Below are positions 13,791 to 35,440 of a stretch of DNA of 64,000 bases, in pieces (within the stretch, counting starts at the first letter, position 1; each line of letters starts with the position of its first letter). Both the position numbers and the translations under genes were made by a program. The notes under the pieces were generated by a model. It worked only from the letters and a program-made list of their open reading frames with translations, was not told the origin of the DNA and did not search any database. The stretch is from Sphingomonas sp. Its GTDB lineage: Bacteria; Pseudomonadota; Alphaproteobacteria; Sphingomonadales; Sphingomonadaceae. The DNA is taken from positions 807,487 to 871,486 of the forward strand of contig NZ_DASYHL010000005.1 of assembly GCF_035998645.1 (NCBI RefSeq), in the 5' to 3' direction.

Positions 13791-14696
13791 TCAGATGTCG
13801 GGCTCCGCAAGCCGCCGCTGCGCAATCGCCTTCACCTCGGCCTGCAGAAGTTCGACCCGCTCGACGATCCAGTCGAGCTCCTCGCGGGTGATCCGATAGT
13901 GCGGCGAGTAGCGCGCATTGACATAGGCCTGCTGCAGCAATTCAAAGCAGCGGCGCGCGAATTTGGTGTCGCGCGGCCACACCGGAATGAGGTCGCGCGC
14001 GACATTCTCGGCCTGATCGCGCAGGAAATTGAGCTTGTGCGACTTGGGACTGTAGAGCGTCAGCACAAGTAACAGCGTATGGTAGGCATGCTCGACGGCT
14101 TGGTGCAGAAGAAAGGCCGCGCGGTTGTTATAGCCCTTGTCCACTGCGCCCTGTGCGAGGTCTAAAAACTCGGCAGCGCTCGAATACCACTGAGCGAAAT
14201 TCGCCTGCGCCTCGGCCCGCGCAGCTTCCGGATCAAGCGGCTTCGGCGCCTCGAACGGGTGCCCGTCGAGCTGGTAGAGGGCGACCCCATCGCGCACGAT
14301 ATCGACAAAGAACGGACGCCCCCGCGCGAGCAGGTCGTTTACATCCTTGAGGCTGTGCACGATGAAATTGACCGGCGCCGAGAGCCGCTTGCTGATCGAA
14401 TACTCCCGCAGCAGATGGTCGGCAGCCTTGGCCCAATAGTCGAGCGTATCGGTGAGGCGCTCATCACTGACGACCACGAGAATGTCGTAATCCGAGTAAT
14501 AGCCACCGATCGGATCGGCGACCCAATCGCCACGCGCATAGGAGCCGTAGAGGATCACCTTGAGGATGCGCCCCTGCTTCTTCCATTGCTGGGTCGCAAG
14601 GCGCGTCGCGTCCTCGAATTCAGCGAACAGGATCTCGACAACGCGCTCGAGGTCGCGGCGCTTGGCGGATGGAAGATGATCGAGATCGGTTTTCAT
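13791..14696 (-). CDS. Nucleotidyltransferase (MNT) + HEPN fusion protein
   Basis: LYGSYARGD...SDYDIL (GS/DxD) followed by HEPN AAFLLHQAVEHAY and YVNARYSPHY. Confidence 0.85.
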   Translation of the reverse strand: MKTDLDHLPSAKRRDLERVVEILFAEFEDATRLATQQWKKQGRILKVILYGSYARGDWVADPIGGYYSDYDILVVVSDERLTDTLDYWAKAADHLLREYSISKRLSAPVNFIVHSLKDVNDLLARGRPFFVDIVRDGVALYQLDGHPFEAPKPLDPEAARAEAQANFAQWYSSAAEFLDLAQGAVDKGYNNRAAFLLHQAVEHAYHTLLLVLTLYSPKSHKLNFLRDQAENVARDLIPVWPRDTKFARRCFELLQQAYVNARYSPHYRITREELDWIVERVELLQAEVKAIAQRRLAEPDI

Positions 14697-14760
14697 GATG
14701 GTTCGAATCCTAGCGGGCTTCTGGCCAAGAACAACGGCAACATGAAGCAGAAAGGGAAGA

Positions 14761-14786
14761 GACCCCGCGCCGCTTGGCGCGGGGTC
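14761..14786 (-). terminator. Hairpin terminator after DUF736
   Basis: GACCCCGCGCC-GCTT-GGCGCGGGGTC, an 11-bp perfect stem followed by a pyrimidine-rich tract on the minus strand. Confidence 0.6.
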
Positions 14787-14793
14787 CAGGCGG

Positions 14794-15114
14794 TCAGTCG
14801 GCCGGATTCCAGATGATGGCGAAGCTGTCGTCATCGGTGTGACCAGCGGCGCGACCGAGATTGGCGTAGAGCCGGCGGGGTCCGAACTCGGGTGCAGCGA
14901 GGCTCAGCGACACATAGTCCTTGCCCGAGGTTTCGCTGCGGCGCAGCCACCCCGCGCCGACCTCGACGCCGCCCGAAGTAACCCGATAATCGGGCTGGTT
15001 GTCGCTGGTCTTGCGGTCGTTGGGGGCGATCAGGATATCCGCCCGGATTGAGAGGGTCTTGAGCTCGCCCTTGAAGGCGTTGCCGTCGCGGGTGACGTAA
15101 CCGATAGCAGCCAT
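14794..15114 (-). CDS. DUF736 domain protein
   Basis: MAAIGYV...QPDYRV...EVGAGW...GKDYVSLSLAAPEFG...LYANLG...IIWNP. Confidence 0.9.
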   Translation of the reverse strand: MAAIGYVTRDGNAFKGELKTLSIRADILIAPNDRKTSDNQPDYRVTSGGVEVGAGWLRRSETSGKDYVSLSLAAPEFGPRRLYANLGRAAGHTDDDSFAIIWNPAD

Positions 15115-15982: not shown

Positions 15983-18900
15983 CTACTGTCCTCGCTTCTT
16001 TCCATTTTTATGGCCCTTTTTCGAGCTTGGTTTCGACATCTTCGCCGCCTTTTTGGCGGCTTTCGCGGCCTTGGTCGCCTTGGTATCGATGCCGCGCTTG
16101 GTCAGATCTATCCCGATGACGCGTATGTCCTCGACGCCGGGGTAGTCGTTAGAGATGAGTGTCCAGTGGCGCTGGAGCTCGTCGACCAGCATCTCGAAGG
16201 TGTCGGCCCGTCGGCCGTTTGGCAGCTCCCAGTACGACTTCGTGCCGAGGTAAACCAAAAGGAAGATGCCGCGGCTTGACCGGACGTCGCGCAGGTAGTC
16301 GCCGCACAGCTGGACCTCGAGTCGTTCGAAGAGGTGCGGTCCGGTCCATTTGTCTGCCAGCTTCAGCTCGGTCGGCACGGGTGCATCGAAGCCGACGCCG
16401 AAGAAGCGGAGGTCCGGCCGCTTGGCGTCCGCTAGTTCCTCTTCCTGCGGGACAACGTAGCGTCCGGCGGCATGGTCGCGGCACCATCCGCCGATGAACT
16501 TCCGGAACTCCGTCTCTTGGTCGATCGCCTGCAGGATCGATGCGATCGAGGAATCGCCGTTCTCGAGGTCGTGTTTCAGCGCGTCGAGCTTGTCGGCGGC
16601 GTGATACCAAAGTTCGCGGTGGTTCGCAGGCGTCGCGACGAGGGACTTTCCGAACTCGCGCACCTGTGCCGGGGTCCAGGCGTCGACGTCCGCATCGGCC
16701 GCGGCCTTCGCCTTCGCGTGGAAGCCCATCCAGGGTCTGCTTCCCTCATCGGGGTGCGCGCGCGCCATCTCGAGCAGCGCGAGGAACGCCGGTTTGCCGG
16801 GCGTCTCGCGGATGAAGGCGATGAGCGCGTTGCGCGCGTCCTGCGCGTCGTCACGCAGGCCCGGCGAGTAGACGCCCTTGCCGGCACGCTGGACGTCATC
16901 CTCCTGCCGTATGTAGCGAGCCATTAGGAGGTAGAGCGACTTCATGTGCTCGACCGTGCGGAAGGCCTGGCGCGCTCGACCCTCCTGCGAACGGCCGCCG
17001 AGCAGGGCGACGACGAAGGCGAGCGCCAGTTTCGTCTGCTCTGCGGGATCGTTCATCCCGGCAAAGCGGGCCGCGAGCGCGGGGATCGCCGCATCCGGGT
17101 CGACGCCGACCCATGTGGCGAACCAGATCGGGGAGAAGGTCAGGTTGCGGGTGGCATTTGCCTTCCGGGACGCGATCGCGGCGATCGTCTTGTCATCCAC
17201 CGACGAGCGGTTGATGATCGCCAGCAGGTAGCCGAGGTTCCTGGTGTTGAGCCGCTTGGCGCGTATCGCTGGTAGTAGGTCCGGCGCGATATGGTCCCAT
17301 ATCCAGTCGCCGCTCCAACTGACGTCATAGAGCGCGTAGTGGCTCTCGCCTGCGGCCGTCTCGGTGGACAGCTCCTGCATGATCTCGCGGCGGATGATGT
17401 CGACGACCTGCGAGGGGAACGTCTTGCTGAGCTGCGGGAGCCAGGTCGGGAAGCCATTCAGCTCCTGAAGCCCATAGCGGGTGGCGATCTCCGCTTGGTC
17501 CGCGTTCAGGCCGGATGGCCAGTTCTCGGTCTCCCGGGCCTCAATCGAGAGGCCGGTGAGCCCGAATATCGTCGTGAAGGGCGTCGTGTTGGCGGCCGCG
17601 CCCTCGGAACGGAGCTTCGGTATGTTCTGTCGCCAGTAGTCGACAGCACCGTCGCGGAACGCCTCCGCGAGGTCTTCGCCGAACTCGTCAATGAGGGAGC
17701 GCCAATTGCCGTCGGTCCAGCGATTATGCTGACCGTCGGTTTCCCGCATCTGGTCGTGGAGATAGGCCTGGTCTTGCGACACCAAGCCCGGTCGGCCGAA
17801 GTTCCGGACGGTGGCGATGCGACCCGCAAGAATCTTCTTCGCCCTCTGCTTCGCCTTCGCCTCTTTCGCGGCCCGCCGGTCGGATTCGCGCTTCCATGCT
17901 GCCTGCTGGCGCTTGAATTTTGCGCCGGCGCCCTTGGGAGGGTTGAGCAGCTTCGCGAGTTCTGCCTCGATCTCTGGCTCGATCGTAGCGGCCTTCTTGA
18001 GACGGTCCCGCCAAGCACGGAGCCGCCCGTTCTGGTAGTACAGCGCGACTGCGAGCGTGAGGGCCGTCAGCTTGTCGTCTTTGAGCGGCCGTCCGGTGAT
18101 CTGCTCGGCCACGTAGTCGAAGTCCGGTCCGCTGAACGCCCAATAGGAACCGAAGATTGACACGAGCCAGTAATCGGTCAGACATTCGCCGCTCTTACGC
18201 TTCCGCGAACGCTCCTCGGCGACGCAGTACCAGAACAACGCGCGGTTGAGCTCAGGCCATGCCTGGACCAGTTTCGGCAGGTCCTTGCGGATTTCCTCGA
18301 ACAGGCTGCGGCCATAGTCCTCGGCGATCGGAAGTTTCCGCAACACCGACAGTGCCGGCTTCTTGAGCGTCTCCGGATTGCGGCCCTGGATCATCTTCAC
18401 AACGATCTGACCGGCGGCCTGCCCAAGCCAGCTGTACCGCTTGGATATCTCGCAGTGGCGCTGCTCGACCACGGGCTTCCGGTTCAAAAGCTTGCTGATC
18501 CCCTCCAGCAGGGTCGCGAGCGATGAAGGCGGGAGCGATGCCACGTATCCGGACAGCGCGTTGGCGAGCGGATCGGTCTCGAACTGCTTCTTGGGTTCGG
18601 TGGCCGCAAGGGCCGAGAGGAGCCAATCCACGTCGGCCGGGGCGTTGCCGAGCCCGTCCAGAAGCTCACCCAGCCAGTCGCGCCTCAGCGGCGGCCGCTC
18701 CGCGACGAACGCCATGCGAACGTCGGCGACGTCCTCAGGCGTCCCCACCTCCACGATGGCCCGTACGGCGGCGATGCGCGCGTATTTCGACCGCGACGTA
18801 AGGGCGAATCGTTTCGCCTTGTCGGCGAGCGCGGCGATGCCGCCCTGTTGGACCATCCGCATGAGGAACCAGACGATGTCGTCGTCGTCCTTGTGGTTCT

Positions 18901-20374
18901 CGAGGAGCTCTCGGATGACGTCTGCGAGATCCGGGTTGGTGAAGCGCTGCACGGCCGAGTATTCGGTGACGCTGCGGCCATGCGCTGGCTGAGCGAGCTG
19001 CTCGCAGGATTCCCGGAGGATCTGGACCCGCGTCTCGAGCGGCAACCGCGCGGGATCGCCGCCCTCAAAAAGGACCTCGGGAGCGAGGCACATGACCCGT
19101 TCAAGGATCCGCTGATCCAGGATCGCCAGCCAAGGGAGGATCGGACGCATCGTTGGGACGACGACCTCGATGCCGTATTGCCGGCGGAAGAACAGGTTCT
19201 CGACGCGCGCGCGCGATCCTTCGTCGATCAGCAGCGAATGAATCCATTCTGCGGTGAGGAACTCGCGGACCGACCGGTGGTGGAAGCGGACAGTACCGTA
19301 GATGCCTTCGTCGAAGATCGGCCTGGTGAGAAGCGTGCGGCAGTCCGCGTCGTCCCAGTCGGTCAGGACCTGCCTGATGTCGAGGCCGCGGTCGTTCTTC
19401 TGTCCGTCTGGGACGCGTACCGCCGATTCCTTGGCCAGGGTGGACGCCGCGGCGACAAGGCGTGCACCTTCGCGAATGCGTTTCTTCGAGATCGGGTTGG
19501 CGTCTGCACGGTCCTGGTCACGCTCCTCAAGACGCTTGTCGATGCTCGCGCGCAGCAGCTCGAGGCGCGAGCCGACGCGGCCGTTCGCGAGCCAAAACTC
19601 GATTGTCTCGGCGAGATCGAGCGGCCGAGTCGTGAACGACCACGCCTCCGCGCGGTCCAGCGCCTTCCTGAACGCGGCGACGTCAATGACACCCTTCGCG
19701 TCCGCGAAGCGATCGACCTGGTTGCCGGCGAGGTCATCGAGCGCGACCATGCGGAACACCGACTTGCGCTGCTTGGAGTTTGCGCCGTCGGTGGTGGTGA
19801 CTGCTTCGTCTGATTCCTGGTCTTCGCCGGGCGCGGTCACTGGCGGGGTCCAGGACAGGTTGGTCTCGCAGAGCAGTAGATCGGTCTTAGGCCGCCATGC
19901 TTCGCCCCGGCTGGTGATGACGATGTGCGCGCGCTGCAGGGCGCCGCGCAGCTTGCGGCCGATCGTCCTTATTGCCCGCTCGAAGTCCTTGGGATCCTTC
20001 AGCCGTGCCTCGTCCACGGAGTCGAGGAGCAGCCAGCCGTCCTCGCCGGACGCGATCCAATCCTCGAATTCCTCCTGTGTCCCTTCCTCGAACGACCCGT
20101 CGAAGTCGAGCGCCAGGTGCTCGATGCGGAGGAAGAAGGCACGCTTCCCGCGGTGCCGGAGATCCCGGCATACATGCCTGATCTCCTCCGTCTTCCCGGA
20201 CCCCGCCTCGGAAAGCAGCACGACGCGTGGTTCGGCGAGCAGGTCGGGCCACTGCGCGGGCTTTTCCCGGCGCATCAGCCGGAAAAGCTCGGTGTCCTTT
20301 CCCTCCTCCTCGTGCAGGGCGAGGTCATGGAAGGTGCGGTGAAGCTGTATGAACTCGTCTAGGTCGTACGACAC
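15983..20374 (-). CDS. Large STAND/NACHT-type NTPase with C-terminal PD-(D/E)xK-like nuclease; Avs2-like anti-phage candidate
   Basis: GTG at 20374 with GAGAGGG RBS; Walker A SEAGSGKT, Walker B LLLDSVDE, ITSR, RFHHRSVREFLTAEW; helical middle; C-terminal EEELADAKRPDL...PTELK. Confidence 0.7.
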   Translation of the reverse strand: MSYDLDEFIQLHRTFHDLALHEEEGKDTELFRLMRREKPAQWPDLLAEPRVVLLSEAGSGKTEEIRHVCRDLRHRGKRAFFLRIEHLALDFDGSFEEGTQEEFEDWIASGEDGWLLLDSVDEARLKDPKDFERAIRTIGRKLRGALQRAHIVITSRGEAWRPKTDLLLCETNLSWTPPVTAPGEDQESDEAVTTTDGANSKQRKSVFRMVALDDLAGNQVDRFADAKGVIDVAAFRKALDRAEAWSFTTRPLDLAETIEFWLANGRVGSRLELLRASIDKRLEERDQDRADANPISKKRIREGARLVAAASTLAKESAVRVPDGQKNDRGLDIRQVLTDWDDADCRTLLTRPIFDEGIYGTVRFHHRSVREFLTAEWIHSLLIDEGSRARVENLFFRRQYGIEVVVPTMRPILPWLAILDQRILERVMCLAPEVLFEGGDPARLPLETRVQILRESCEQLAQPAHGRSVTEYSAVQRFTNPDLADVIRELLENHKDDDDIVWFLMRMVQQGGIAALADKAKRFALTSRSKYARIAAVRAIVEVGTPEDVADVRMAFVAERPPLRRDWLGELLDGLGNAPADVDWLLSALAATEPKKQFETDPLANALSGYVASLPPSSLATLLEGISKLLNRKPVVEQRHCEISKRYSWLGQAAGQIVVKMIQGRNPETLKKPALSVLRKLPIAEDYGRSLFEEIRKDLPKLVQAWPELNRALFWYCVAEERSRKRKSGECLTDYWLVSIFGSYWAFSGPDFDYVAEQITGRPLKDDKLTALTLAVALYYQNGRLRAWRDRLKKAATIEPEIEAELAKLLNPPKGAGAKFKRQQAAWKRESDRRAAKEAKAKQRAKKILAGRIATVRNFGRPGLVSQDQAYLHDQMRETDGQHNRWTDGNWRSLIDEFGEDLAEAFRDGAVDYWRQNIPKLRSEGAAANTTPFTTIFGLTGLSIEARETENWPSGLNADQAEIATRYGLQELNGFPTWLPQLSKTFPSQVVDIIRREIMQELSTETAAGESHYALYDVSWSGDWIWDHIAPDLLPAIRAKRLNTRNLGYLLAIINRSSVDDKTIAAIASRKANATRNLTFSPIWFATWVGVDPDAAIPALAARFAGMNDPAEQTKLALAFVVALLGGRSQEGRARQAFRTVEHMKSLYLLMARYIRQEDDVQRAGKGVYSPGLRDDAQDARNALIAFIRETPGKPAFLALLEMARAHPDEGSRPWMGFHAKAKAAADADVDAWTPAQVREFGKSLVATPANHRELWYHAADKLDALKHDLENGDSSIASILQAIDQETEFRKFIGGWCRDHAAGRYVVPQEEELADAKRPDLRFFGVGFDAPVPTELKLADKWTGPHLFERLEVQLCGDYLRDVRSSRGIFLLVYLGTKSYWELPNGRRADTFEMLVDELQRHWTLISNDYPGVEDIRVIGIDLTKRGIDTKATKAAKAAKKAAKMSKPSSKKGHKNGKKRGQ

Positions 20375-20967
20375 TGAAGCCCTCTCTGGCCGGCCACTTC
20401 TTGGTCCCTCCCCCCAAACTTGCAGGCCTCGTTGACGTGCGGCCATGCCTTTTCATGTAGCACGACTGGCGTGTCTGCTCACGCGCGCGATTCATGTCCG
20501 CTTATGGAGCTTGCAGATAACTGTCAGAGTGTGAGACCTGTGCCGCGTTGTTGCCAGGCACCTTGGGATGGGCGAATGGCGGGTTCTGGAGGAAGCTGTC
20601 GTCCAAAGCCCAATCCGCAAACGACGCATTTTGGTCGGAAGCCGTCTTGCGTGGTCAGTCGATTGCCGCGGCAGCTTTCCAGAGTTGGCCCGCTGAACCG
20701 GCCAGTCCGAAATCGGCCCACGAGCTGCCGAGCTGGTTTCGGCACGAACCGCCAGTCTACAAAGCGCCCCATGATCGGACGTTCAGCCTGTCTCCGCACG
20801 CGCTCGAAACCGGGCGTTTTTTTATCTCACTTAGCCGGTGGTGCGGAAGACGGCCCTTAGAAGTTTGCGGCCGTTCCGACGTTGTGTGCCGACCGGCGGA
20901 TTGTGGTCAGGAGCCGACATCAAAGCAGGTGTGTGCGGGGTGCTCCGGCCCACTCCCACCCACGTCT

Positions 20968-21576
20968 CTAACGCGCGGCACGCTCCCGGATTTGTAAGCG
21001 TATCTCGGCAGTCCGACGTTCGGTTTCGGTCAGCCCCGCCATCATTCCGGCCAGTGGTGCATGCGTGCCGCCCTCGAACTCCAGCCCTGCGCATACCTCC
21101 AGCGCCTTGCGATACTCGGTCCACCGTTCCTGCGCGACCCCAAAGGCCTCGGTCTCCTCGTCGCTCAGCAGCAGCCGGAGATTCACCATGGCTTCCTCCA
21201 AGTTGGCATCGGCAACCCCAAAGTCCGCGCCGGTTCGCGCCTTCATCGCCACATTCGACAGAAAGGCCGCGTATGTGTCCGGCTCATCCTCGATGGCTTC
21301 GACTACTACGGTCGCGGCTGCACTAGTCGCCAAGCTTGGCTTCCGCATAATCTTCTCGAACTGACGAACCTCGTCCAGCGTCGTGCCGCTGGCTTTCAAC
21401 TTCGCGGCTAGGTCCGCCACGCTGTTGAGGTATGCGGCCTGCTCCTGTTTTGGAGCGCCAGTCCACCAGCGATGAATTAAAAACGTGAACCCGCGTCCAA
21501 ACCAGCCGACTAGCCCCGCGACCAAGGTGATTGCGGCGACGATGAGGGTTGCTTGGGGGGCTGTGACCTGGAGCAT
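20968..21576 (-). CDS. Membrane-anchored LprI/DUF1311-like protein
   Basis: N-terminal TM; C-terminal AQERWTEYRKALEVC matches the LprI AQxxWxxYRxxxC pattern. Confidence 0.6.
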   Translation of the reverse strand: MLQVTAPQATLIVAAITLVAGLVGWFGRGFTFLIHRWWTGAPKQEQAAYLNSVADLAAKLKASGTTLDEVRQFEKIMRKPSLATSAAATVVVEAIEDEPDTYAAFLSNVAMKARTGADFGVADANLEEAMVNLRLLLSDEETEAFGVAQERWTEYRKALEVCAGLEFEGGTHAPLAGMMAGLTETERRTAEIRLQIRERAAR

Positions 21577-21660
21577 GTCTCAAGCTATCGTGTGCGGCGG
21601 CGCTTGGCGACCGTTCTACAGCACCGAGGTTAGGCCCCGCCTTGTTGGTTGAATAAGGAT

Positions 21661-21675
21661 GTTCTATCTTCGTTC
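21661..21675 (+). promoter_or_regulatory. Alphaproteobacterial LexA (SOS) box
   Basis: GTTC-TATCTTC-GTTC, 24 bp upstream of the ATG at 21700. Confidence 0.6.
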
Positions 21676-21699
21676 GATCAGCGGGGACGACGCGAGCGC

Positions 21700-24600
21700 A
21701 TGCCATTGGATCCAGTGACGACGACCATTGCGAAGGCGGCTGCGGCTCCAGCGGCTAAGCTCGGCCTCGATTTCATGAAGATTCAACTGGGGCGTCGGAA
21801 CGCACCTTTCGCGGACCTCGAAACGCTTCGAGGCGCTGACACGGAGCTGGACGAAGCAATATCGGTCCTGACCGGCAAGGCTGGTGGACTACCAGCCTCG
21901 CTCCTCGCGAAGCTTAAGGGCGTGATCTCGGACCGACCCGACAGCTTCGCTGACGCGGATTCGCGGCGGTTCCTCGAGGATTCTCGTGTCGTCAATCTGG
22001 TCAAGTCGGGAGCCCGACGCACGGTTCGCGGAGAGGACGTCGAGGAGGAGCGCGCGAAGGCGCGCGAGCTGCATGCCGAGATCTTCGGTGAGGACGGCAT
22101 CTACGGCGAGACACTGATCGAGGACGCGATCGCATTCGGCGCGCTTACGCTTCTCGCCCATCTGACCCCAGCCGACCGGCAGGTGGTCGAGCTGGTCTCC
22201 GACCTGCGGGCCGAGGTGCAAGAAGGCTTCGCGGAGGTCATCGACGCTTTCGAGGCGACAAAGGCCGCCATCGACGGCCGTCCGCTCGACGCCGCTCCGT
22301 TCGACGAGGTGGTTCGCAAGAAGCTGCGACAGCTGCGTCGTCGCCGAATGCTGCCTCAGCTGAAGCTCCCTGACGAGGCGGTTGCCCTCGGCGAACGGGT
22401 GGACAGCGGCCTCAGGCTGGCTTCTCCCGATATCCGAGGCGAGGTTTATAGAGAAGCCGCAGCGCTTCTCATTCGGGCAGATCGTACACCGGAAGCATCT
22501 CCATGGATCGCGAAGGCGAAGGCCGTCGGAGCGGACGTAACCTGCGAAGAGGCGAGGATCGCGACCTCCGAAGACCGCTGCGACGAAGCGCTCCGGATGC
22601 TGCGAGATCGGACGGACGCGCTTGCTCGCGGCCTCCTCTTGGACGCCATCGCCCGTCGCGACGGAGACGTCGCCGCGATCGCATACTTCGAGGAAAATCT
22701 CACCGCAGCCGACCTCACCGGCCATGCGCTTCAAGCGACATCGATGCGTCTCCTGGCGGCCGATCGCGACGGCGACGCGGCCACTCTGCTGGACCAGGCC
22801 ACGGGCGGACAGATCGACGAGAATCCGATGCTGCTATACCTGCGAGCCGGGCTCTCGCTGGCGAAGGCGCTGCCGCCCGACATCGCGAAGCGACTGCTAG
22901 ATAACGATGGCTTCCTTCCGCGCGTGTCCGATCTTCACGACGACGCTGAGGGACGGCGCAACCTGAAGAGAGCGGAGGCCGACCTCGCGGCTCTGACGCG
23001 GGCGCTGCCGGATCTAGAGGCGCCGGACCTCGCCGATCTCGTCGAGATCAAGCTCACCGCATTGAGACTATGCTCCTCCGACGAGACCACGCGGGAGTTG
23101 GCACGATCCGGGCTGGTGGCGAACATGGCGGACGTGGACCGAGCGGTCATGCTCGCACCGATCGCCAAGCAGTATGGCGTGAAGGTGGATTGGGCCGCGC
23201 TGAAGGCGAAGCTCTCGAAGGCCGAAGCCCTTGGCGGTCTCGACGACATGCAGCTCCGCGCCGCCTTCACCATTGTCATGGACGAAGGCGATCCTGCGAC
23301 GATCGCGGACTTCGTCCACCGACACCGCGCCAAGCTCGAGCACTACGTGCTGAACGAGAGCATCGTCGCGCTCGAAATCGAAGCGCTGGCGAAGTCGGAC
23401 AGGCTGGACGACGCGAAGGCGCTGCTAGCAGCCGAGCGGGAGATGATTGGCGAGACCGGAGCGAAGTTTCTCGAGACGACATTCGCGGAGCTGGAAGGCG
23501 CGGATACTGTTCAGCAGCGCCTGGAACAATTCGAGGCTTCGGGATCCACCCATGACCTCGAAATACTCGTCGAGGTCATGCGGCGTCGACGCGATCGCAG
23601 GCTGGGCGACTATCTCGAAAAGCTGTGGCGCATCAGCCGGCAGATCTCGGATGCGCGACGCGCGTGCGAAACGCATCTCCAGCAGGGCGAAGAGCTCAAG
23701 GCTGAGACCTTTCTCGAGGAGATCGGCGACGTCGCTCTTGGCGATCCGCGGCTGCGAACACACCTCGCCTGGACCCGATACCGCCAGGGACGCCTGGACG
23801 ACGCCGAAGCGGAACTGGTCAGCCTGCAATACATGGGGGTCGACGACGCCAACACGCGCCGTCTTCGCGTGCTTCTCCTGGTCGAGACCGGTCGGTGGAA
23901 CGAACTGGAGCCGTATGTCCAGAACGAGCTGGCCGAACGCGAAGAAAGGTCTGCCGACGACCTGATCGTGACGGCCGACGTCGCCCGCGCGATAGGCAGC
24001 GGCACCACGATGGACCTCCTGCGCGCGTCGACGGCCAAGGACCCGAACGACGCCCGGATTGCCGTGCAGGCCTACATGATCGCCACCGGGGCGGGTCTGG
24101 AGAGGAATCCGGAGGTCGGCGACTGGTGGACCGCCGCGATAGCGGACAAGGAGAGCAGCGGACTCGTCGAGAAGACCGATTTCAACGAACTGATCGATCA
24201 CGTCACCGGTTCGAGAGCCGAGGCAGAGCGGATCAGCGGCATGATCAATTCGGCAGCTGTCCCGATTTTCCTAGGCTTGGGAGCGCTCGGCGGCACGCAG
24301 AGCGAGCTGGTGATCCGGCAGATGGGTGCCAACGCTCGCCAGTCGGACAGCCGACGTCGCAGCGTCGTCCCTCTATTCGCAGGCAACAGAATGCTTCGCG
24401 TGGACCTACGACCGAAATCCATCTCGCTCGATCCGATATCGATCCTGCTGCTGGATCAGCTGGGTCTACTGAACACGGTGATCGACGCCTTCGAGGATGT
24501 CGTCCTGCCTTCCGGCACGCTGCACACCTTCTTCGAGGACCGCAGCAAGGCTTCGCACACCCAGCCAAGCCGCGTCGCTCAGGCCAGACGCATCCGTGAC

Positions 24601-25950
24601 GCCATCTCGACCGGGGTCCTCAAGGTGCACGACGGAAGCGCGCCGTCACGTGAGCACGACGTGGATGAGGAATTCTCGACGCTCTTTGCCGCCGCCGAGG
24701 CCCAGGACGGCTTCGTCGTCGACACTGCGCCCCTGCATCCGCCAAGCATTGTCGACACTGTCGTCGACCCCGCTCCTTACGCGCACCGCCTTCTCAGCCC
24801 TGTCGGACTGGTCGCCGCGCTGCATTCTGCTGGGACCGTGAGCCGCACCGTCGCCATCGCCGCCGAGACCGCGGTCGCTGGCAGCGGCAGCACCTTCCCC
24901 AGCGAGGCGGTGCCGCCGCGCGGCAAGCCGATCTTCCTGGCCAACATCGCCGTCCAGTATCTGAGCGACGCCAACCTTCTTCACGAAATCAGGGCGCACG
25001 CAGGCGAAATCTACACGTCGCGCGAGACGATGGATCTGGCCGATCGGGAGATCGCCGCGGCGGCCGCCGCAGAAGAGGTGGCAGCAGGGATCGAACGCGT
25101 TCGCGACACTCTGTCCCGCGCGATCAGCGAGGGGCGAGCGCGCGTCGGGCCGGCAAGACGCACGAAGGACGAGCTCGACCGCGAGGAACGCCGCGGCGAT
25201 CGCGCCGTCCGAATGAGCCCGGTCGTGAGCGTGCTGCGCGATGCAGCTGGGGTCGACGCTTTCGTCTGCGACGACCGCGGCATGAACAAGTATCTCGAAA
25301 TCACGCCGCAGAAGGGCGCCAGCGTGCCCCTCCTCACGACGACGGACATCCTCGCGATCCTGCACGCCAGAAAGGTCATCGACGACGACGCGGTCGACGC
25401 CGCACGAGAGAGAATCCGGCGCTCGGGAGCAGGACTGATGCTCGTCGATCCCGACGAGATGCGGCGCGCGGTCAGAGACAGCAACTGGAGCGTAGGACCG
25501 AATGCCGAGATGCGTGCAATCAGGGATTCGATCCATCTGCCTATCGCTCGCAGGATACTCCAGCTCCCCGAAGAGCGGATCTGGCTTCGTGCGACATCTC
25601 TCTCGATCGCTTATGCGATGCGGAACGCCTGGATCGAGATCGAGGACGACGACGACGCCGAGCGCGCCGCCAACTATCTGTTCGACATGCTTCCAGACCC
25701 TGCGGCGCTGAGCGCCAGCGACGAATCTCCAGATCGCCAGGCCTGGGTCAGCGAGCTCACGCGCTTCTTCGTCTGGGCGGTAGCGGCAATGTTCGACCTG
25801 CGCGACAGCCGGGTCGAGCGCCATCGCTTCTGGTTCGAGAGCCGGATCGAACTGATGGCGGAGCAGCGTGACCCCGGTGCGATTGAGGCCGTCGCCAAGA
25901 GTCTCTACGCCTCCATGACGGGCCCAATGGACCTTGACGATGACGACTGA
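21700..25950 (+). CDS. 1416-aa helical-repeat (TPR-like) protein with C-terminal PIN-like domain(s); defence candidate
   Basis: TPR-like helices (AWTRYRQGRLDDAEAEL, AYFEE); PIN-like ISLDPISILLLDQLGLLNTVIDAFEDVVLP, a second PIN-like block IFLANIAVQYL, and AFVCDDRGM/LLTTTDILAIL. Confidence 0.6.
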   Translation: MPLDPVTTTIAKAAAAPAAKLGLDFMKIQLGRRNAPFADLETLRGADTELDEAISVLTGKAGGLPASLLAKLKGVISDRPDSFADADSRRFLEDSRVVNLVKSGARRTVRGEDVEEERAKARELHAEIFGEDGIYGETLIEDAIAFGALTLLAHLTPADRQVVELVSDLRAEVQEGFAEVIDAFEATKAAIDGRPLDAAPFDEVVRKKLRQLRRRRMLPQLKLPDEAVALGERVDSGLRLASPDIRGEVYREAAALLIRADRTPEASPWIAKAKAVGADVTCEEARIATSEDRCDEALRMLRDRTDALARGLLLDAIARRDGDVAAIAYFEENLTAADLTGHALQATSMRLLAADRDGDAATLLDQATGGQIDENPMLLYLRAGLSLAKALPPDIAKRLLDNDGFLPRVSDLHDDAEGRRNLKRAEADLAALTRALPDLEAPDLADLVEIKLTALRLCSSDETTRELARSGLVANMADVDRAVMLAPIAKQYGVKVDWAALKAKLSKAEALGGLDDMQLRAAFTIVMDEGDPATIADFVHRHRAKLEHYVLNESIVALEIEALAKSDRLDDAKALLAAEREMIGETGAKFLETTFAELEGADTVQQRLEQFEASGSTHDLEILVEVMRRRRDRRLGDYLEKLWRISRQISDARRACETHLQQGEELKAETFLEEIGDVALGDPRLRTHLAWTRYRQGRLDDAEAELVSLQYMGVDDANTRRLRVLLLVETGRWNELEPYVQNELAEREERSADDLIVTADVARAIGSGTTMDLLRASTAKDPNDARIAVQAYMIATGAGLERNPEVGDWWTAAIADKESSGLVEKTDFNELIDHVTGSRAEAERISGMINSAAVPIFLGLGALGGTQSELVIRQMGANARQSDSRRRSVVPLFAGNRMLRVDLRPKSISLDPISILLLDQLGLLNTVIDAFEDVVLPSGTLHTFFEDRSKASHTQPSRVAQARRIRDAISTGVLKVHDGSAPSREHDVDEEFSTLFAAAEAQDGFVVDTAPLHPPSIVDTVVDPAPYAHRLLSPVGLVAALHSAGTVSRTVAIAAETAVAGSGSTFPSEAVPPRGKPIFLANIAVQYLSDANLLHEIRAHAGEIYTSRETMDLADREIAAAAAAEEVAAGIERVRDTLSRAISEGRARVGPARRTKDELDREERRGDRAVRMSPVVSVLRDAAGVDAFVCDDRGMNKYLEITPQKGASVPLLTTTDILAILHARKVIDDDAVDAARERIRRSGAGLMLVDPDEMRRAVRDSNWSVGPNAEMRAIRDSIHLPIARRILQLPEERIWLRATSLSIAYAMRNAWIEIEDDDDAERAANYLFDMLPDPAALSASDESPDRQAWVSELTRFFVWAVAAMFDLRDSRVERHRFWFESRIELMAEQRDPGAIEAVAKSLYASMTGPMDLDDDD

Positions 25951-27892
25951 AGAACGACCGCCACTGGACGAGGGCACGCGCGCCTTCGTCGTCACCATGT
26001 TGCAGAAGATGCCGGAGTCGATCAGCTCCGTCATCCTGGCGGATGAGGCGGCACGCCGGGATCTCGCGCTGCCGGTCGAGGAATCAATCCGAATTTTCGA
26101 CCGACGTTTCTCTCGACGCGCGGTGTTCGACGCGCTGCACGAGGTCGCGAACGGGCGAAAGGCCGAGCTGTCGTCGTCGGAAGGGAAGCTGACAGTCGAC
26201 GAGTCTTCCCTGAGGGACGACGGGAGCGCGATCCTCGTGGCCGGAGGGGAAGGCGCGCGTTTCCGCAATGTGGGACTGATGAGCGACGAGGCGGCGGTCA
26301 GGAGCAGGACGCTCGCCGCCCTGCTTCTCGACGAGGACCTGAGCGAGGAAGAAGAGAGGGGTATCAGGGCAGCAGTCGATGCAGGACCGATCGGCGAGGA
26401 TGCGCTTTCGGACCTTGAGACGCTCGTCAAGGCTACGCCCAAGGCCGTCTACCGCAATCTGGTCGGCGGCTCGGACGACGACGTCCGCTTCGACGAGCTC
26501 GTCCCCGGGGACCGGGAGTTCTTCAAGAAGCTGCTTGGCAGCGAGCCCCCAGCCACGCTCGGTGCTTACCGCGGGGAATGGCTGGTGGCTGCCGCATCGC
26601 TAGACCCGGTGCGGCGCGCGCGGTGGATCGCGCTGACGACACCGATCGCGATCCTGAAGGGCGATCTCATAGTTCCGGTGGTCAAGGATCTGGATCGCGA
26701 GGTCCGACTGAGGCTGGCCCGCTTCCTGAGCGGGGCCGCCGATCCCTTCAGCCAGGTCGCCGCCGTCCAGATTGCCGTCGCGGAGCATTCAGACGAGGAC
26801 TTCCGCGCCGTGGGCGACGAGCTTATCCCCCGCCTGCTCGACCGCAGTCACGAGCGGACGGCCGCTTCCCTTTCCTTTCTGTCGTCCGCCACCGTCCTCA
26901 CCGGCGCGGTGACCGCGCGGCGCAGGATCCTCGATGGCTGGCCCGTCTACGCCAAGCGCCTTGCCACTCATCTCCACGCCAGCCTCATCGTCCGCACCTT
27001 CGGCATTGAGCGCATCGACGTCGAGGACATGCAGCGGATGGTGGGGCGATCCCTCACGCAGAACCATCGGCTCGTCGAGCTGTGCGACGCAAGGTCGGTT
27101 CCGCACAATCTCTGGAGCGCTCCCTCCGCGGAGCGCATACATTCGGCCGTAGTGTCGCGCGTCATTCAGGCGCTCGACCTCATTCCAGAGAACGACCGGC
27201 CCTCGAACTGGATCGAAGCGATCGACAAGGTCGTCGAGACTATCACGTCCGGACCCGAGAGGCTGCCTCACATGGCGCCGGGACCGTTCGATCCGTTCGA
27301 GGACGACTGGAGCGGACTGATCGAGCTCGACAAAAAATCTGCCGAGGAGCTGGTCACCCGCATGATCGCGAAGGAGGTTCCGCAGCACACGGTCAGCGAC
27401 ATCTACAACCTCGTCGTCGCCTTTGACCTTGGATCCGAGGAGCGTGGCGCCGTCTCGCAGAAGCTGCCTGACTTCCTGGAAACCCTTCCCGACGACGGCT
27501 TCACCGTCGCCGTCGACTTCGCGCTCCAGCTTGCCGCGCGCTGGAAGATGTCGCAGCTCGGGGAGCGGCTGATCGACATGTCGTTGGCCCGCGCACGCTC
27601 GGACGGTTTGAAGAACCTGAGCGCGGGTCCGACGTTCAGCCTTCTCGCCGCTGCCAGCAACACCGATCCGGAGGTGTGGTCCCACAAGACCGGCGAATAC
27701 ATGAGCGGCTTCGCGTTCGCGCTGCGACCCGGCCCGGCGATCAGGAACATGATCGCGGCCATCGATCTGATAGGCGACTTCTCCCCCGCGCTGCAGCCGG
27801 CACTGACCTCGGCCAGATCGTTCGCCATGCTGGCGCTGGACGAAGTCCCGCCAGCTCCCGCGCCTCAATCCCTCGAGGTCGACGTAGACTAA
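25940..27892 (+). CDS. 650-aa helical hypothetical protein coupled to the TPR/PIN gene
   Basis: Long ORF; its ATG at 25940 overlaps the upstream stop by 11 nt; same codon style; no catalytic motif recognised. Confidence 0.75.
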   Translation: MTTEERPPLDEGTRAFVVTMLQKMPESISSVILADEAARRDLALPVEESIRIFDRRFSRRAVFDALHEVANGRKAELSSSEGKLTVDESSLRDDGSAILVAGGEGARFRNVGLMSDEAAVRSRTLAALLLDEDLSEEEERGIRAAVDAGPIGEDALSDLETLVKATPKAVYRNLVGGSDDDVRFDELVPGDREFFKKLLGSEPPATLGAYRGEWLVAAASLDPVRRARWIALTTPIAILKGDLIVPVVKDLDREVRLRLARFLSGAADPFSQVAAVQIAVAEHSDEDFRAVGDELIPRLLDRSHERTAASLSFLSSATVLTGAVTARRRILDGWPVYAKRLATHLHASLIVRTFGIERIDVEDMQRMVGRSLTQNHRLVELCDARSVPHNLWSAPSAERIHSAVVSRVIQALDLIPENDRPSNWIEAIDKVVETITSGPERLPHMAPGPFDPFEDDWSGLIELDKKSAEELVTRMIAKEVPQHTVSDIYNLVVAFDLGSEERGAVSQKLPDFLETLPDDGFTVAVDFALQLAARWKMSQLGERLIDMSLARARSDGLKNLSAGPTFSLLAAASNTDPEVWSHKTGEYMSGFAFALRPGPAIRNMIAAIDLIGDFSPALQPALTSARSFAMLALDEVPPAPAPQSLEVDVD

Positions 27893-28418
27893 TCTAGGGC
27901 TGCGGTGCGCTTCGTCTCCAATCCGGGATGCGCTGGTCCCGCTGCAGGCGCAGCCGTCGCCAGTCCAGGGCCGCGAAGATCTCATCGGCGCCGCCATCGC
28001 GGGCGACGGGAGGTGCCGCGGCGACCTCGCGCAGGAAGCGGGGGCCAAGCGCGTCATCGTAGAGGTAGGCCCGCTCCCACGAGCCGAAGCTGTCGGTCAC
28101 ATCAGCGGCTCCAAGTCTGTTGAGTTGGTCGGCAACTATCGTCTGGAATTTTCGACCGGCAGTGGCAGCTATCGCCCGTTGGGCACATGGAAGCTGCGAG
28201 TCCGCAAACGGCCCAAGAGCCGACACGCGACTCTCGATTGAGCGATTGAGCGATGGCCATGTCTCGCAACCTAACGCCGAGCCGAAACTGCGAAGCGTGA
28301 CTCATTGACAATGCCGGCAGCACAATCGCGTGTATTCAGCCGGGTCGCCAAGCGTCGGATTCCCGGCGGCTCCCGCCCCCACGATCCAAGCCAGCTCAGG
28401 CAAACCACGTTGCCTCAC

Positions 28419-28433
28419 GTTCACTTTATGTTC
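28419..28433 (+). promoter_or_regulatory. LexA (SOS) box
   Basis: GTTC-ACTTTAT-GTTC, about 50 bp upstream of the ATG at 28486. Confidence 0.65.
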
Positions 28434-28485
28434 TATCGCACTCCCCACCGCGATTCGCGGCCGTTGACATCGATGGAGCCTGAGC

Positions 28486-28689
28486 ATGGAGCATGACCTC
28501 CAGCTGCGTGCGGCTGCGCGCGCAATCTACGACGCCTGTTATCCGAGCGAGGACTGGTCTCCGCTGGGCTTCGACGAGGCAGAGCGGTTCGGGACAGTCC
28601 ATTATCGCCAGGCGGTTGGCGCTGCGCAGAGCGCCCGGGCGCTGCTGGCAAGCCAGGGCGAACAGCTGGCACTGCCCGTCTTCGCGTAA
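28486..28689 (+). CDS. Small hypothetical protein (67 aa)
   Basis: GGAG RBS, upstream LexA box, MEHDLQLRAAARAIYDACYP. Confidence 0.7.
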   Translation: MEHDLQLRAAARAIYDACYPSEDWSPLGFDEAERFGTVHYRQAVGAAQSARALLASQGEQLALPVFA

Positions 28690-33459: not shown

Positions 33460-33909
33460 CTAGCGCGCTTCATCGAGCAGTCGAATTGTCTCAGGGTCCG
33501 CGTTGCCGCCGAACCAGCGAACGAGCGCATCTTCGAACAAGGCAAGAGGACGCGCCGCCTCGAACAAGGTCAGCGAAGAACGCAACTTAAGCGCATCCAC
33601 ATCGCCGAACACGGCAACTGCGTCGGCATTGTCGAGGTCCTGCAACTCGCTCACGCACTCAAGGTAGCGGGCACCCAGGATCGGGTCGCGAAGATAAGCG
33701 CGCGCTTCCTCGAGCGAGCGGATCGCAAAGAACTGCGCCGTCTCGCTGCGCCCGAGGCCCGTGAGTTGGGGGAAGATGAACCACATCCAGTGCGACCGCT
33801 TGGCACCAGCGCGGATCTCCGCCAGTGCCAGATCATAAACGCCCTGCTGCGCGGTCACGAACCGGTCCAGATCGATCTCGCCAATACCGCCATGCTCGAT
33901 CACCGCCAC
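33460..33909 (-). CDS. DUF1810 family protein
   Basis: LDRFVTAQ...KRSHWMWFIFPQL...ALKLRSSLTLF; GTG start chosen from the GAAGGGG RBS. Confidence 0.85.
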   Translation of the reverse strand: MAVIEHGGIGEIDLDRFVTAQQGVYDLALAEIRAGAKRSHWMWFIFPQLTGLGRSETAQFFAIRSLEEARAYLRDPILGARYLECVSELQDLDNADAVAVFGDVDALKLRSSLTLFEAARPLALFEDALVRWFGGNADPETIRLLDEAR

Positions 33910-33938
33910 TGCGCGATCCCCCTTCGTCGATTCCCCAT

Positions 33939-33953
33939 GTTCTTGCATTGTTC
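33939..33953 (-). promoter_or_regulatory. LexA (SOS) box
   Basis: GTTC-TTGCATT-GTTC, 30 bp upstream of the DUF1810 GTG start. Confidence 0.6.
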
Positions 33954-34130
33954 GTAGCATAACTGCCTGTCATGTCGACCGCGCTGGCCCTGATCCGGTC
34001 ACATGTTGCGCCGGCTCAAGCAGCTGGACCTGCACGCAGCCGACCCGCTCGCCTCGCGTGCACCGGTCCTGCTGACGGGCGCCTGCAGAGCCGTGCCGAC
34101 CGAGTTCTATGTCTATAAGCCCGTCCGTCG

Positions 34131-34463: not shown

Positions 34464-35036
34464 TCAGCGCCCTGCCGCGAGGCTGCGAAAGGTGATCGAC
34501 CAGCGCGGTGCCTCAAGCGGGGCGATGCTGTGCTCCCAGCCATGGCGGGCCTCGCCCGCGAGGTGATAGACCGACCCCGGCGCGAGCGGCACACTGCGCC
34601 GTTCGAACTTCGCGCCGACCCGCCGCCGCAAGCGCAGCGCTGCCGCCGCGCCGAGCGAGACCCCGACGACATGCTCAAACACCGGGCGGTCCCTGTGCCA
34701 GCCGATGCTCGCTCCGGGATCATAGCGGATCAGCAGCGCCTGGACGAGCGCGTCGGGCGCTAGCCCGGCGAACGCGGCAGCCCGCATGCGTACCGCCTCG
34801 AGCCAGTCCGGCATGGGCGTGGTCGGGGCAAAGCGTCCGGTATCGAAATCATAGGACCAGCCGAACGATTGCGTGAGCCGCTTGCCGGTCCAGCCCTGGA
34901 AGCGGAACGGGGTCAGCCCGCTGGCATCGATCCCGGCAATCAGCGCCGCCTGCTCGGGCGCGCTCACCAGATCGGGCGCCATCTTGAGCCCGGGAAGCAG
35001 CGGCGCGTCGAACAGGCCGGGCAGCGCCAGCGTCAT
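34464..35036 (-). CDS. AlkB-like 2OG-Fe(II) dioxygenase
   Basis: RYDPGASIGWHRD (HxD), GVSLG, WEHSI, RWSITFR. Confidence 0.9.
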   Translation of the reverse strand: MTLALPGLFDAPLLPGLKMAPDLVSAPEQAALIAGIDASGLTPFRFQGWTGKRLTQSFGWSYDFDTGRFAPTTPMPDWLEAVRMRAAAFAGLAPDALVQALLIRYDPGASIGWHRDRPVFEHVVGVSLGAAAALRLRRRVGAKFERRSVPLAPGSVYHLAGEARHGWEHSIAPLEAPRWSITFRSLAAGR

Positions 35037-35440
35037 CGTCGTCCGCGTCCACCTTCGCCGATCCCGGCGGCGCGCATCCGGTCGCCAAGCGCGACCCCGC
35101 CAAGCGTGCAGCGGGCAACCACCCGGTCGTAGCTGCGCCGGCCCGCGCGGCAGACCAAATTGCGGCCGCGCGTCAGCGTCTCGAGCGCGCGCTTGGCATC
35201 GCGCCCGCCCGGCGCGTTGAGCTCGGGCGCGTAGAAGTCGGCGAGACGGATTTCGATCCAGCGTGCAGGCTGCCCCGCCGGCCCGACGCACAGGCTGTCG
35301 CCATCACCGACATAGCGCACCACCCCGGAGAACTGCGTCCCCGGCGCGGGGAGCTTGCCCTCGCACGGATCGGCCAGCGCGGGCGTCGCCCAGCCGGCAA
35401 GCAGGACGGGGAGGATCAGATATCGAAGGCGCAGGTGCAT
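35033..35440 (-). CDS. Thermonuclease (SNase-like), secreted
   Basis: Signal peptide; GDGDSL, IRLADFYAPE, SYDRVVARC. Confidence 0.85.
   Translation of the reverse strand: MHLRLRYLILPVLLAGWATPALADPCEGKLPAPGTQFSGVVRYVGDGDSLCVGPAGQPARWIEIRLADFYAPELNAPGGRDAKRALETLTRGRNLVCRAGRRSYDRVVARCTLGGVALGDRMRAAGIGEGGRGRR

Follow-up and report, generated by a model that had tools for sequence, protein, structure and literature searches.

A candidate SOS-controlled double-PIN cassette, split into two overlapping genes, among the cargo of a Sphingomonas mobile element

A 64,000-nt stretch of a Sphingomonas sp. genome (NCBI RefSeq assembly GCF_035998645.1, contig NZ_DASYHL010000005.1, positions 807,487 to 871,486; hereafter the window) carries two long overlapping open reading frames (ORFs), A and B, behind a GTTC-N7-GTTC direct repeat. 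This word is the alphaproteobacterial LexA operator, as established by work in Rhodobacter, Rhizobium, and Caulobacter. We analyze this cassette, for which an earlier reading of the letters alone (the original prediction) had proposed a damage-induced defense system. The gene layout on which that proposal was built is confirmed: ORFs of 1416 and 650 aa overlap by 11 nt, and the box lies 24 nt before the first ATG (Table 1). The analysis places A, by its domain matches, in a recognized branch of conflict-type proteins, identifies A and B as halves of one giant, and locates the LexA operator over the predicted −10 element of their promoter.

The boundaries of the cassette are sharp. In the closest relative (locus L004), DNA homology begins at 21638, just 5′ of the −35 element, and ends at 27834, with 83% nucleotide identity and unrelated flanks. 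Because this homology includes the promoter and the box, promoter and operator are part of the mobile cassette. The start of A is set at ATG 21700, since its homologs share an M-x-x-DP N terminus. ORF B ends at 27892 and may start at ATG 25940 (650 aa) or TTG 25934 (652 aa); the 11-nt overlap refers to the ATG. The A+B pair is kept in every split locus retrieved. Programmed frameshifting at the junction was considered and is unlikely: no slippery heptamer is present, and the split, with overlaps of 8–14 nt, is kept in most split loci.

Table 1. Coordinates of the cassette and its parts, numbered from the first letter of the window
Feature	Position	Strand	Basis
Whole cassette (promoter/operator, ORF A, ORF B)	21638..27892	+	DNA homology to closest relative; A+B pairing
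−35 element, CTTGTT	21641..21646	+	Fixed distance to box across loci
LexA operator, direct repeat GTTC-TATCTTC-GTTC (GTTCTATCTTCGTTC)	21661..21675	+	Exact GTTC-N7-GTTC match, 24 nt before the ATG of A
−10 hexamer, CTATCT, within the operator spacer	21664..21669	+	17 nt after −35; predicted from sequence
ORF A, 1416 aa	21700..25950	+	Stop-free translation; 38 homologs of similar length
A residues 1–600, helical, no recognized family	21700..23499	+	Conserved among homologs
A residues 601–800, TPR-like repeats	23500..24099	+	Weak TPR matches
A residues 828–897, HTH_upst_double_PIN (PF24407)	24181..24390	+	Pfam match; three helices in model
A residues 905–1045, PIN-1	24412..24834	+	PIN-type strand/helix order in model; conserved acidic residues
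A residues 1075–1250, PIN-2	24922..25449	+	Pfam PF20698; conserved acidic residues
A residues 1251–1416, C-terminal helical domain	25450..25947	+	Confidently modeled helices; continuous with the B-equivalent part in fused relatives
ORF B, 650 aa	25940..27892	+	Start overlaps end of A; 23 homologs of 640–665 aa
B residues 47–115, small beta-rich domain, probable permuted GreA/B-C	26078..26284	+	Subthreshold PF24388; modeled fold
B residues 116–632, alpha-solenoid (ARM/HEAT-like)	26285..27835	+	Structure model

The C-terminal half of A carries its recognizable domains. PF24407, a helix-turn-helix (HTH) family, scores 49 bits (E 7.6e-13; cut-off 27) with the full model covered, and PF20698 (PIN-TPR-GreABC) matches residues 1084–1198 at E 3.9e-8 (34.1 bits against 27.8). 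An AlphaFold2 model of residues 800–1416, built with 37 homologs, reached a mean predicted local distance difference test score (pLDDT) of 87.9 and a predicted TM-score (pTM) of 0.82. In the model, an HTH of three helices is followed by a tandem pair of PIN-type alpha/beta units, each ordered beta-alpha-alpha-beta-alpha-alpha-beta-alpha-beta, and then by a helical domain at the C terminus. An hhalign comparison shows homology between the PIN units (E 2.9e-5 over 154 columns), and the two PIN-like blocks noted at the outset are thus borne out by family match, model, and mutual alignment.

Both PIN domains retain conserved acidic residues. The first acidic position is D911 in PIN-1 (100% acidic) and is lost to Ala/Thr in PIN-2; the second is E946/D947 in PIN-1 and D1115/E1117 in PIN-2; the third is D1008 in PIN-1 and D1191–D1192 in PIN-2 (97–100%); the fourth is lost and not acidic in PIN-1 and is D1216 in PIN-2 (97%). 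A PIN-1/PIN-2 pseudodimer with one or two altered sites is possible.

Upstream of these domains, the evidence is sparser. Residues 1–600 match nothing in Pfam, NCBIfam, or PADLOC, and no effector or adaptor family was found there. The TPR architecture originally proposed survives as weak matches: TPR_19 on residues 660–721 at E 0.013, below the cut-off, and the solved TPR protein PA4667 against residues 664–766 at E 0.024, in a profile search of PDB sequences that returned weak TPR matches only. Some relatives reach TPR_19; the remainder of the N-terminal 800 residues of A is helical and belongs to no recognized family.

Because PF24407 and PF20698 both match above curated cut-offs, A is assigned on domain content to the double-PIN branch of the TPR–GreA/B-C–PIN (TGP) conflict systems, which were predicted by Kaur, Iyer, Burroughs and Aravind 2021 (eLife 10:e70394, PMC8195603). 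The original prediction could not match the pair to a named system; it can now be assigned to a named family, the double-PIN/permuted-GreAB-C branch of TGP, which is represented by the curated Pfam models PF24407, PF20698, and PF24388. An exhaustive profile search with the HTH+PIN+PIN+C-terminal region found 1324 cluster representatives at E ≤ 1e-3, of which 603 reached E ≤ 1e-30. These proteins fall into two size classes, one of about 1360–1560 aa (split) and one of about 1900–2130 aa (fused).

The fused class accounts for the relation between A and B. It makes up 32 of the 150 top cluster representatives (about a fifth), and B aligns end to end with residues 1431–2062 of the fused relative P0033 (33% identity, E 7e-93) and also with the C termini of the fused P0038 and P0040. 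In each split locus retrieved, a gene of about 620–660 aa lies directly 3′ of A, mostly overlapping it by 8–14 nt. By these alignments, A and B represent the two parts of a single giant, as the original prediction had suspected for relatives. The B half evolves more quickly: identity to the closest relative is 74% for B and 87% for A, and further out the values are 36% and 50%. The solenoid of B, its end above all, is the fastest-evolving part of the cassette.

A structure model of B (pLDDT 89) shows a short helical start, a small beta domain, and a long alpha-solenoid. The beta domain (residues 49–108) has the order beta-beta-alpha-beta-beta-beta, and the best Foldseek matches of the model are PP2A-A, importin-alpha, and designed armadillo proteins (E about 5e-3, low TM-scores). 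PF24388 (Permuted_GreAB-C) matches P0040 at residues 1450–1496 (E 4e-5), the place aligned with the beta domain of B. Among 24 fused relatives scanned, PF24407 was found in 24, PF20698 in 18, and PF24388 in 3, with a best PF24388 match of E 1.2e-6. Residues 47–115 of B are thus probably a permuted GreA/B-C-type domain, a module predicted to dock on the RNA polymerase (RNAP) secondary channel. The solenoid is probably a recognition surface, and the helical/TPR-like scaffold of A probably the sensor or regulatory part.

Nuclease families also occur among the fused relatives. In 3 of the 24, HNH_2 (two) or Mrr_cat (one) was found, at positions that the scan summary does not give, and a further relative outside this set, P0039, has a weak Mrr_cat match at residues 14–69. 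The TGP principle of a swappable head may therefore extend to the double-PIN branch.

The promoter of the cassette was predicted from a box-anchored comparison. In seven of eight loci, CTTG(T/C)(T/C) stands exactly 14 nt 5′ of the box, and the intervening DNA is unrelated. The hexamers at the −10 position read CTATCT, CTAGCT, CTATAT, CTAAGT, and CTACAT across loci, that is, CTAnnT. We therefore predict a promoter of the form CTTGnn-N17-CTAnnT whose −10 element lies inside the LexA operator. It resembles the alphaproteobacterial sigma-70 consensus, CTTGAC-N17-CTATAT. The position of the −10 element inside the operator accounts for a spacer that is partly conserved between two invariant half-sites. 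A scan for E. coli-type promoters found none in 21300–28600; that scan seeks TTGACA/TATAAT, as against the alphaproteobacterial-type promoter proposed here.

The host genome uses the same operator at its SOS genes. It has one lexA and one recA, with GTTC-N7-GTTC just upstream of both, and further boxes precede uvrA, uvrD, and an imuA-like gene (genes identified by eye) as well as dinB (IMS), an MmcB-like gene, rmuC, a radical-SAM repair gene, and an S24 repressor (Pfam-confirmed). Boxes at recA, lexA, and the other SOS genes indicate that the organism employs the alphaproteobacterial operator. The other SOS promoters carry a TTGAC/CTTG element 12–15 nt before their boxes. The cassette thus resembles members of the alphaproteobacterial LexA regulon, with an exact operator overlapping the −10/spacer as at recA, uvrD, and other SOS promoters of the genome; it differs from them in consisting of mobile conflict-type genes rather than repair or mutagenesis genes.

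Genome-wide counts point in the same direction. GTTC-N7-GTTC occurs 91 times in the genome against 138–158 expected from third-order Markov simulations, and 28 of these 91 boxes fall within −150 to +10 of called gene starts, where 10.3 would be expected (p = 5e-7). The word is thus rarer than expected in the genome at large yet concentrated at gene starts; the shortfall is consistent with selection against spurious LexA sites. The window itself holds six copies against 1.68 expected.

In half of the loci examined, the box accompanies A. It is present upstream of A homologs in 11 distinct loci whose protein identity ranges from 89% down to 45%, whereas about 0.01 boxes would be expected per 430-nt upstream region from the genomic density of the word. 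These 11 loci show six spacer variants with invariant GTTC half-sites: GTTCTATCTTCGTTC in the window, L004, L006, L009, L010, and L011; GTTCTAGCTTCGTTC in L007; GTTCCACCTTCGTTC in the fused L013; GTTCTATATACGTTC in the Novosphingobium locus L020; GTTCTAAGTTCGTTC in L022; and GTTCTACATCCGTTC in the Sphingopyxis bauzanensis locus L027. In L013, the −35 element stands at 25 nt and a CAATAT hexamer lies 5′ of the box, which there covers the likely start site instead. On this comparative evidence the box is a real and selected element, best read as a LexA operator, and the original reading of it as such stands, with boxes at recA, lexA, uvrA, uvrD, and dinB and with conservation upstream of the 11 A–B loci. 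Assignment of the box to the divergent LprI-like neighbor was rejected; that neighbor is not conserved, and the box travels with A.

Two other accounts of the box were weighed against this pattern. The 15-mer could be the operator of another regulator, for example the HTH of A itself, with GTTC-N7-GTTC incidental to a conserved promoter; A does contain an HTH domain, and the whole 15-mer, spacer included, is common to six loci, as would be expected of a site co-evolving with its protein. However, the spacer varies in the five other loci while the half-sites do not, a pattern characteristic of LexA, and the −10 sequence CTAnnT accounts for those letters of the spacer that are conserved. The fused L013 box is shifted relative to its −35 element and is still GTTC-N7-GTTC, the same motif and promoter geometry recur at canonical SOS genes of the genome, and PF24407 is found in all family members, including those at loci that lack the box. 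We regard autoregulation of this kind as distinctly unlikely. That the box is inert, the cassette constitutive, and the conservation a matter of recent common descent of the promoter is highly improbable: six of the 11 boxes do share one sequence, and the loci are related by phylogeny, but at 50–65% protein identity the intergenic DNA has diverged beyond alignment with the half-sites still invariant, and the word is counter-selected genome-wide.

The surroundings of the cassette are of the kind found with mobile defense genes. In the window, it lies among the cargo of an integrative and conjugative element (ICE) with a DUF3363 relaxase, a TraF peptidase, and an SRAP gene; a transfer RNA scan of the window for an integration site found none. 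Neighboring genes on the minus strand encode a 1487-aa protein with an N-terminal P-loop and a weak NACHT match (15983–20446; E 0.0033) and an MNT-HEPN protein with a weak match to PADLOC PDC-S09, the only PADLOC match among the window neighbors (13791–14834). This stretch of ICE cargo looks like a small defense island.

Flanking genes differ in every relative locus, and defense or mobility genes are often present. The neighbors include CBASS at L018; ApeA-HEPN, RES, PIN_8, and umuDC in a prophage-like region at L019; nSTAND3 at L013; a YobI-ATPase and an integrase at L009; AAA_15/21 and Metallophos genes at L006; TerB, BrxD-like, and DEAD genes at L016; and SIR2, HsdR-N, VapBC, and an integrase at L014, on an Agrobacterium pAt plasmid. 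Recombinases and transposases also lie beside relatives. The defense-type context anticipated by the original prediction is therefore seen beside both the cassette and its relatives. Distribution is sparse: of 301 genomes of the order, only 3 have a relative, and 20 congeners have none. The named hosts of close relatives are all Sphingomonadales, and a scan of genome contigs returned eight Sphingomonadales loci with an alignment as query and none with A alone. A tblastn search against phage records gave no match.

These distributional features bear on an alternative in which the cassette is SOS-induced in the service of DNA-damage physiology. An RNAP-docking RNase would then clear or silence transcription complexes stalled or backtracked at lesions, or R-loops, and would be mobile in the way that imuABC, umuDC, and SRAP genes are. 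LexA-regulon membership by sequence, the action of the GreA/B-C domain family on backtracked RNAP (PMC8195603), the SRAP gene on the same ICE, and one fused relative that adjoins umuDC-like genes all fit such a role. The box is missing at half of the loci, however, and the cassette is very patchily distributed (1% of the order), with variable N-terminal nuclease heads in some relatives, a fast-evolving solenoid, and recurrent defense-gene neighbors. Because these are typical of conflict systems, they argue against a repair role, which we consider quite unlikely.

An addiction or competition module is a further alternative: a PIN toxin restrained by B and freed on SOS induction would stabilize the ICE or be harmful to cells that have lost the element or taken up rivals. 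PIN is the commonest toxin fold of type II toxin–antitoxin systems, several toxin–antitoxin modules are LexA-controlled in E. coli, and the cassette travels with integrases, transposases, and an ICE. We nonetheless judge this very unlikely. About a fifth of the best relatives have "toxin" and "antitoxin" in a single polypeptide, an arrangement that a labile antitoxin does not allow; B, at 650 aa and with a docking-type domain, is not a small DNA-binding antitoxin; and no classical antitoxin family was matched. The comparison with VapBC runs along the same line: both share the PIN fold, conserved acidic residues, and frequent residence on mobile elements, but the cassette has no small antitoxin and is a giant multidomain system whose toxin-like and partner parts are fused in many relatives. 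PIN-1 and PIN-2 gave no hhalign match to the single VapC sequence taken from L014, a protein for which a tblastn search of the genome returned no homolog.

Comparison with described TGP proteins defines both the kinship and the peculiarities of the cassette. Like those of Kaur et al., it has a PIN that belongs to Pfam PF20698, together with helical, possibly TPR-type repeats and a probable GreA/B-C-type domain; it evolves rapidly, stands alone with few conserved neighbors, and has relatives with variable N-terminal nuclease heads (HNH, Mrr). It differs in having two tandem PINs after a dedicated HTH; in a probable GreA/B-C-type domain of permuted form that follows the PINs rather than preceding them, itself followed by a solenoid of about 500 residues; and in its split into two overlapping genes, its lack of a recognizable effector head, and the predicted LexA-gated promoter of this clade. 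The classical single-chain order TPR – GreA/B-C – PIN is accordingly replaced here by helical/TPR – HTH – PIN – PIN in one chain and GreAB-C-like – solenoid in the next. Among the PF24407/PF24388 giants, A is a full member and B the counterpart of the last third of a fused chain, whereas the LexA operator is specific to one Sphingomonadales clade. A literature search on permuted GreAB-C found no published description of the double-PIN/permuted-GreAB-C branch.

A classical TGP system has been tested experimentally, whereas the original prediction could match the pair to no named, tested system. Bab/Agp of E. coli ECOR25 (Ibarlosa et al., bioRxiv 10.1101/2024.11.07.622273) acts by abortive infection and protects against T5-like phages, and mutation of the GreA/B-C domain of Agp abolishes the response. 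Within the wider kind, no other example has been tested, and Bab/Agp shares with the cassette a TGP-type protein that acts with the product of an adjacent gene. The partners differ: Bab is described there as a 109-aa Bell-domain pore-type executioner coupled by a shared amyloid motif, whereas the partner here is a 650-aa half of a giant with neither Bell domain nor shared terminal motif, and the PINs are the only recognizable effector domains. Rather than a small Bell-domain neighbor, the only neighbor conserved in all loci is B, at about 650 aa. The portion of the preprint available reports no SOS control for Bab/Agp. What is already known is thus the gene family, through its Pfam models, and the classical TGP kind, published and with one member tested; what appears particular here, judged from sequence comparison, is the double-PIN/permuted-GreAB-C arrangement, the split between the PIN and GreAB-C parts, and a well-supported LexA operator in the promoter of one clade.

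Together, these observations are best explained by a self-contained mobile cassette, a promoter with two translationally coupled genes carried as ICE cargo, and this reading as a whole is, on balance, probable. With similar confidence, we interpret the cassette as an SOS-controlled, double-PIN TGP-type anti-invader system in which the two halves of one giant would form an RNAP-docking RNase complex. No rival fits the variable spacer with invariant half-sites, the fusions, and the patchy defense-type distribution as well. With the −10 element inside its operator, LexA should repress the promoter and RecA-stimulated LexA cleavage should derepress it, so that the cassette would be kept off and then switched on by DNA damage, prophage induction, or other events that create single-stranded DNA (ssDNA). 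A and B, made by coupled translation, would assemble as they do in the fused chains, and the GreA/B-C-like domain of B would dock the complex on the RNAP secondary channel, a mode of docking proposed for TGP proteins (PMC8195603). There, the PIN domains would cut nascent or invader RNA and stop the invader or the infected cell, with the solenoid and TPR parts sensing or regulating. LexA binding in vivo, the A–B complex, RNAP docking, RNase activity, and an anti-phage effect are what we infer from the features above; abortive infection, induction by DNA damage, and incoming ssDNA as a trigger would complete the scheme along the lines of the original prediction.

Several results weigh against this interpretation. 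The box is absent at 11 of the 22 loci examined: L016–L019 and the Agrobacterium and Methylophaga plasmids, which are more distant, but also Erythrobacter, Blastomonas, two genomes of the same family, and S. panaciterrulae; at the Methylophaga homolog, a search for a gamma-type LexA box found none. SOS control is therefore a trait of one clade rather than of the whole family. Even within close range it can be missing, as A of S. panaciterrulae (L012) is 94% identical to A of Sphingopyxis bauzanensis (L027) and lacks the box. The acidic tetrad is incomplete in both PINs, at three of four positions each and with complementary losses, so that neither domain has the full tetrad sought in the original prediction; catalysis is plausible, not assured. 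A Foldseek search of the whole A(800–1416) model against the PDB gave helical-repeat matches only (E ≥ 0.3) and no PIN. PF24388 scores 13.3 bits on B against a cut-off of 27 and appears at E ≤ 0.1 in only 4 of 26 B homologs. PADLOC, one of the checks originally suggested, and NCBIfam hold no model that matches A or B, and the association with defense neighborhoods was judged by eye, without statistics. Finally, a survey in E. coli found defense-system expression to be mostly negatively correlated with recA (bioRxiv 10.64898/2025.12.14.694197). DNA-damage-linked control of defense nevertheless has precedent.

The exception in S. panaciterrulae has a structure of its own. Homology between L012 and L027 starts only 28 nt before the ATG, so the promoter has been replaced in L012. 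The L012 cassette (L012 2626–4193) sits behind an XRE (HTH_31) gene, a Peptidase_M78 (ImmA/IrrE-like) gene, and a 111-aa gene. XRE/M78 regulator pairs answer to DNA damage in other elements. The exchange of promoter for an XRE/M78 (ImmR/ImmA-like) context in a 94%-identical ortholog hints that damage-responsive control may itself be selected.

A more far-reaching proposal is that, in one Sphingomonadales clade, a transcription-surveillance immune giant has come under direct LexA control as a damage-gated second line of defense. In healthy cells it would stay off—the presumed reason being the cost of an RNAP-docking RNase—and it would be made only on a RecA-filament signal from phage replication, prophage induction, or incoming conjugative ssDNA, shutting transcription from within the RNAP secondary channel. 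We offer this as a speculative and rather unlikely extension. Should it hold, the cassette would offer a tractable model for the SOS scheduling of toxic immune effectors and for the function of the double-PIN family.

The interest of the locus lies partly in its family. The double-PIN/permuted-GreAB-C giants number more than 1300 clusters at 50% identity and are recognized only through Pfam domain models; the cassette is a compact, natural two-part version of 6.3 kb whose predicted on/off switch is readable from the sequence. It bears on how an immune-type RNase complex could be held off until SOS induction, on GreA/B-C-like docking on RNAP, and on the role of half-degenerate PINs, and it suggests how mobile cargo may plug into a global regulon of its host by a LexA operator overlapping its own −10 element.

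Additional boxes were observed in the window and elsewhere in the genome. A second window box, GTTCACTTTATGTTC at 28419–28433, lies in a promoter region (28408–28441) with a TTGCCT −35 and a CTATCG −10 at 17-nt spacing; its last half-site overlaps the −10, and it stands 5′ of a 67-aa ORF at 28486–28689 on the plus strand (MEHDLQLRAAARAIYDACYPSEDW...) that matches no family. An ORF of 241 aa called at 28493 seems to extend too far at its 5′ end. A third box with an AT-rich spacer, GTTCTTGCATTGTTC on the plus strand at 33939–33953, overlaps the first codons of a DUF1810 gene (33460–33960, minus strand), which follows an AlkB-like dioxygenase gene (34464–35291) and a 109-aa ORF on the minus strand; the DUF1810 gene may be another SOS-controlled cargo gene. 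Promoter-proximal boxes also precede noncanonical genes of the genome: a glutathione S-transferase gene (C1:804436), a 156-aa ORF (C3:734619), and an XRE-M78-ScfR gene of 460 aa (C2:61073). The SOS regulon of this organism thus seems wider than the repair core.

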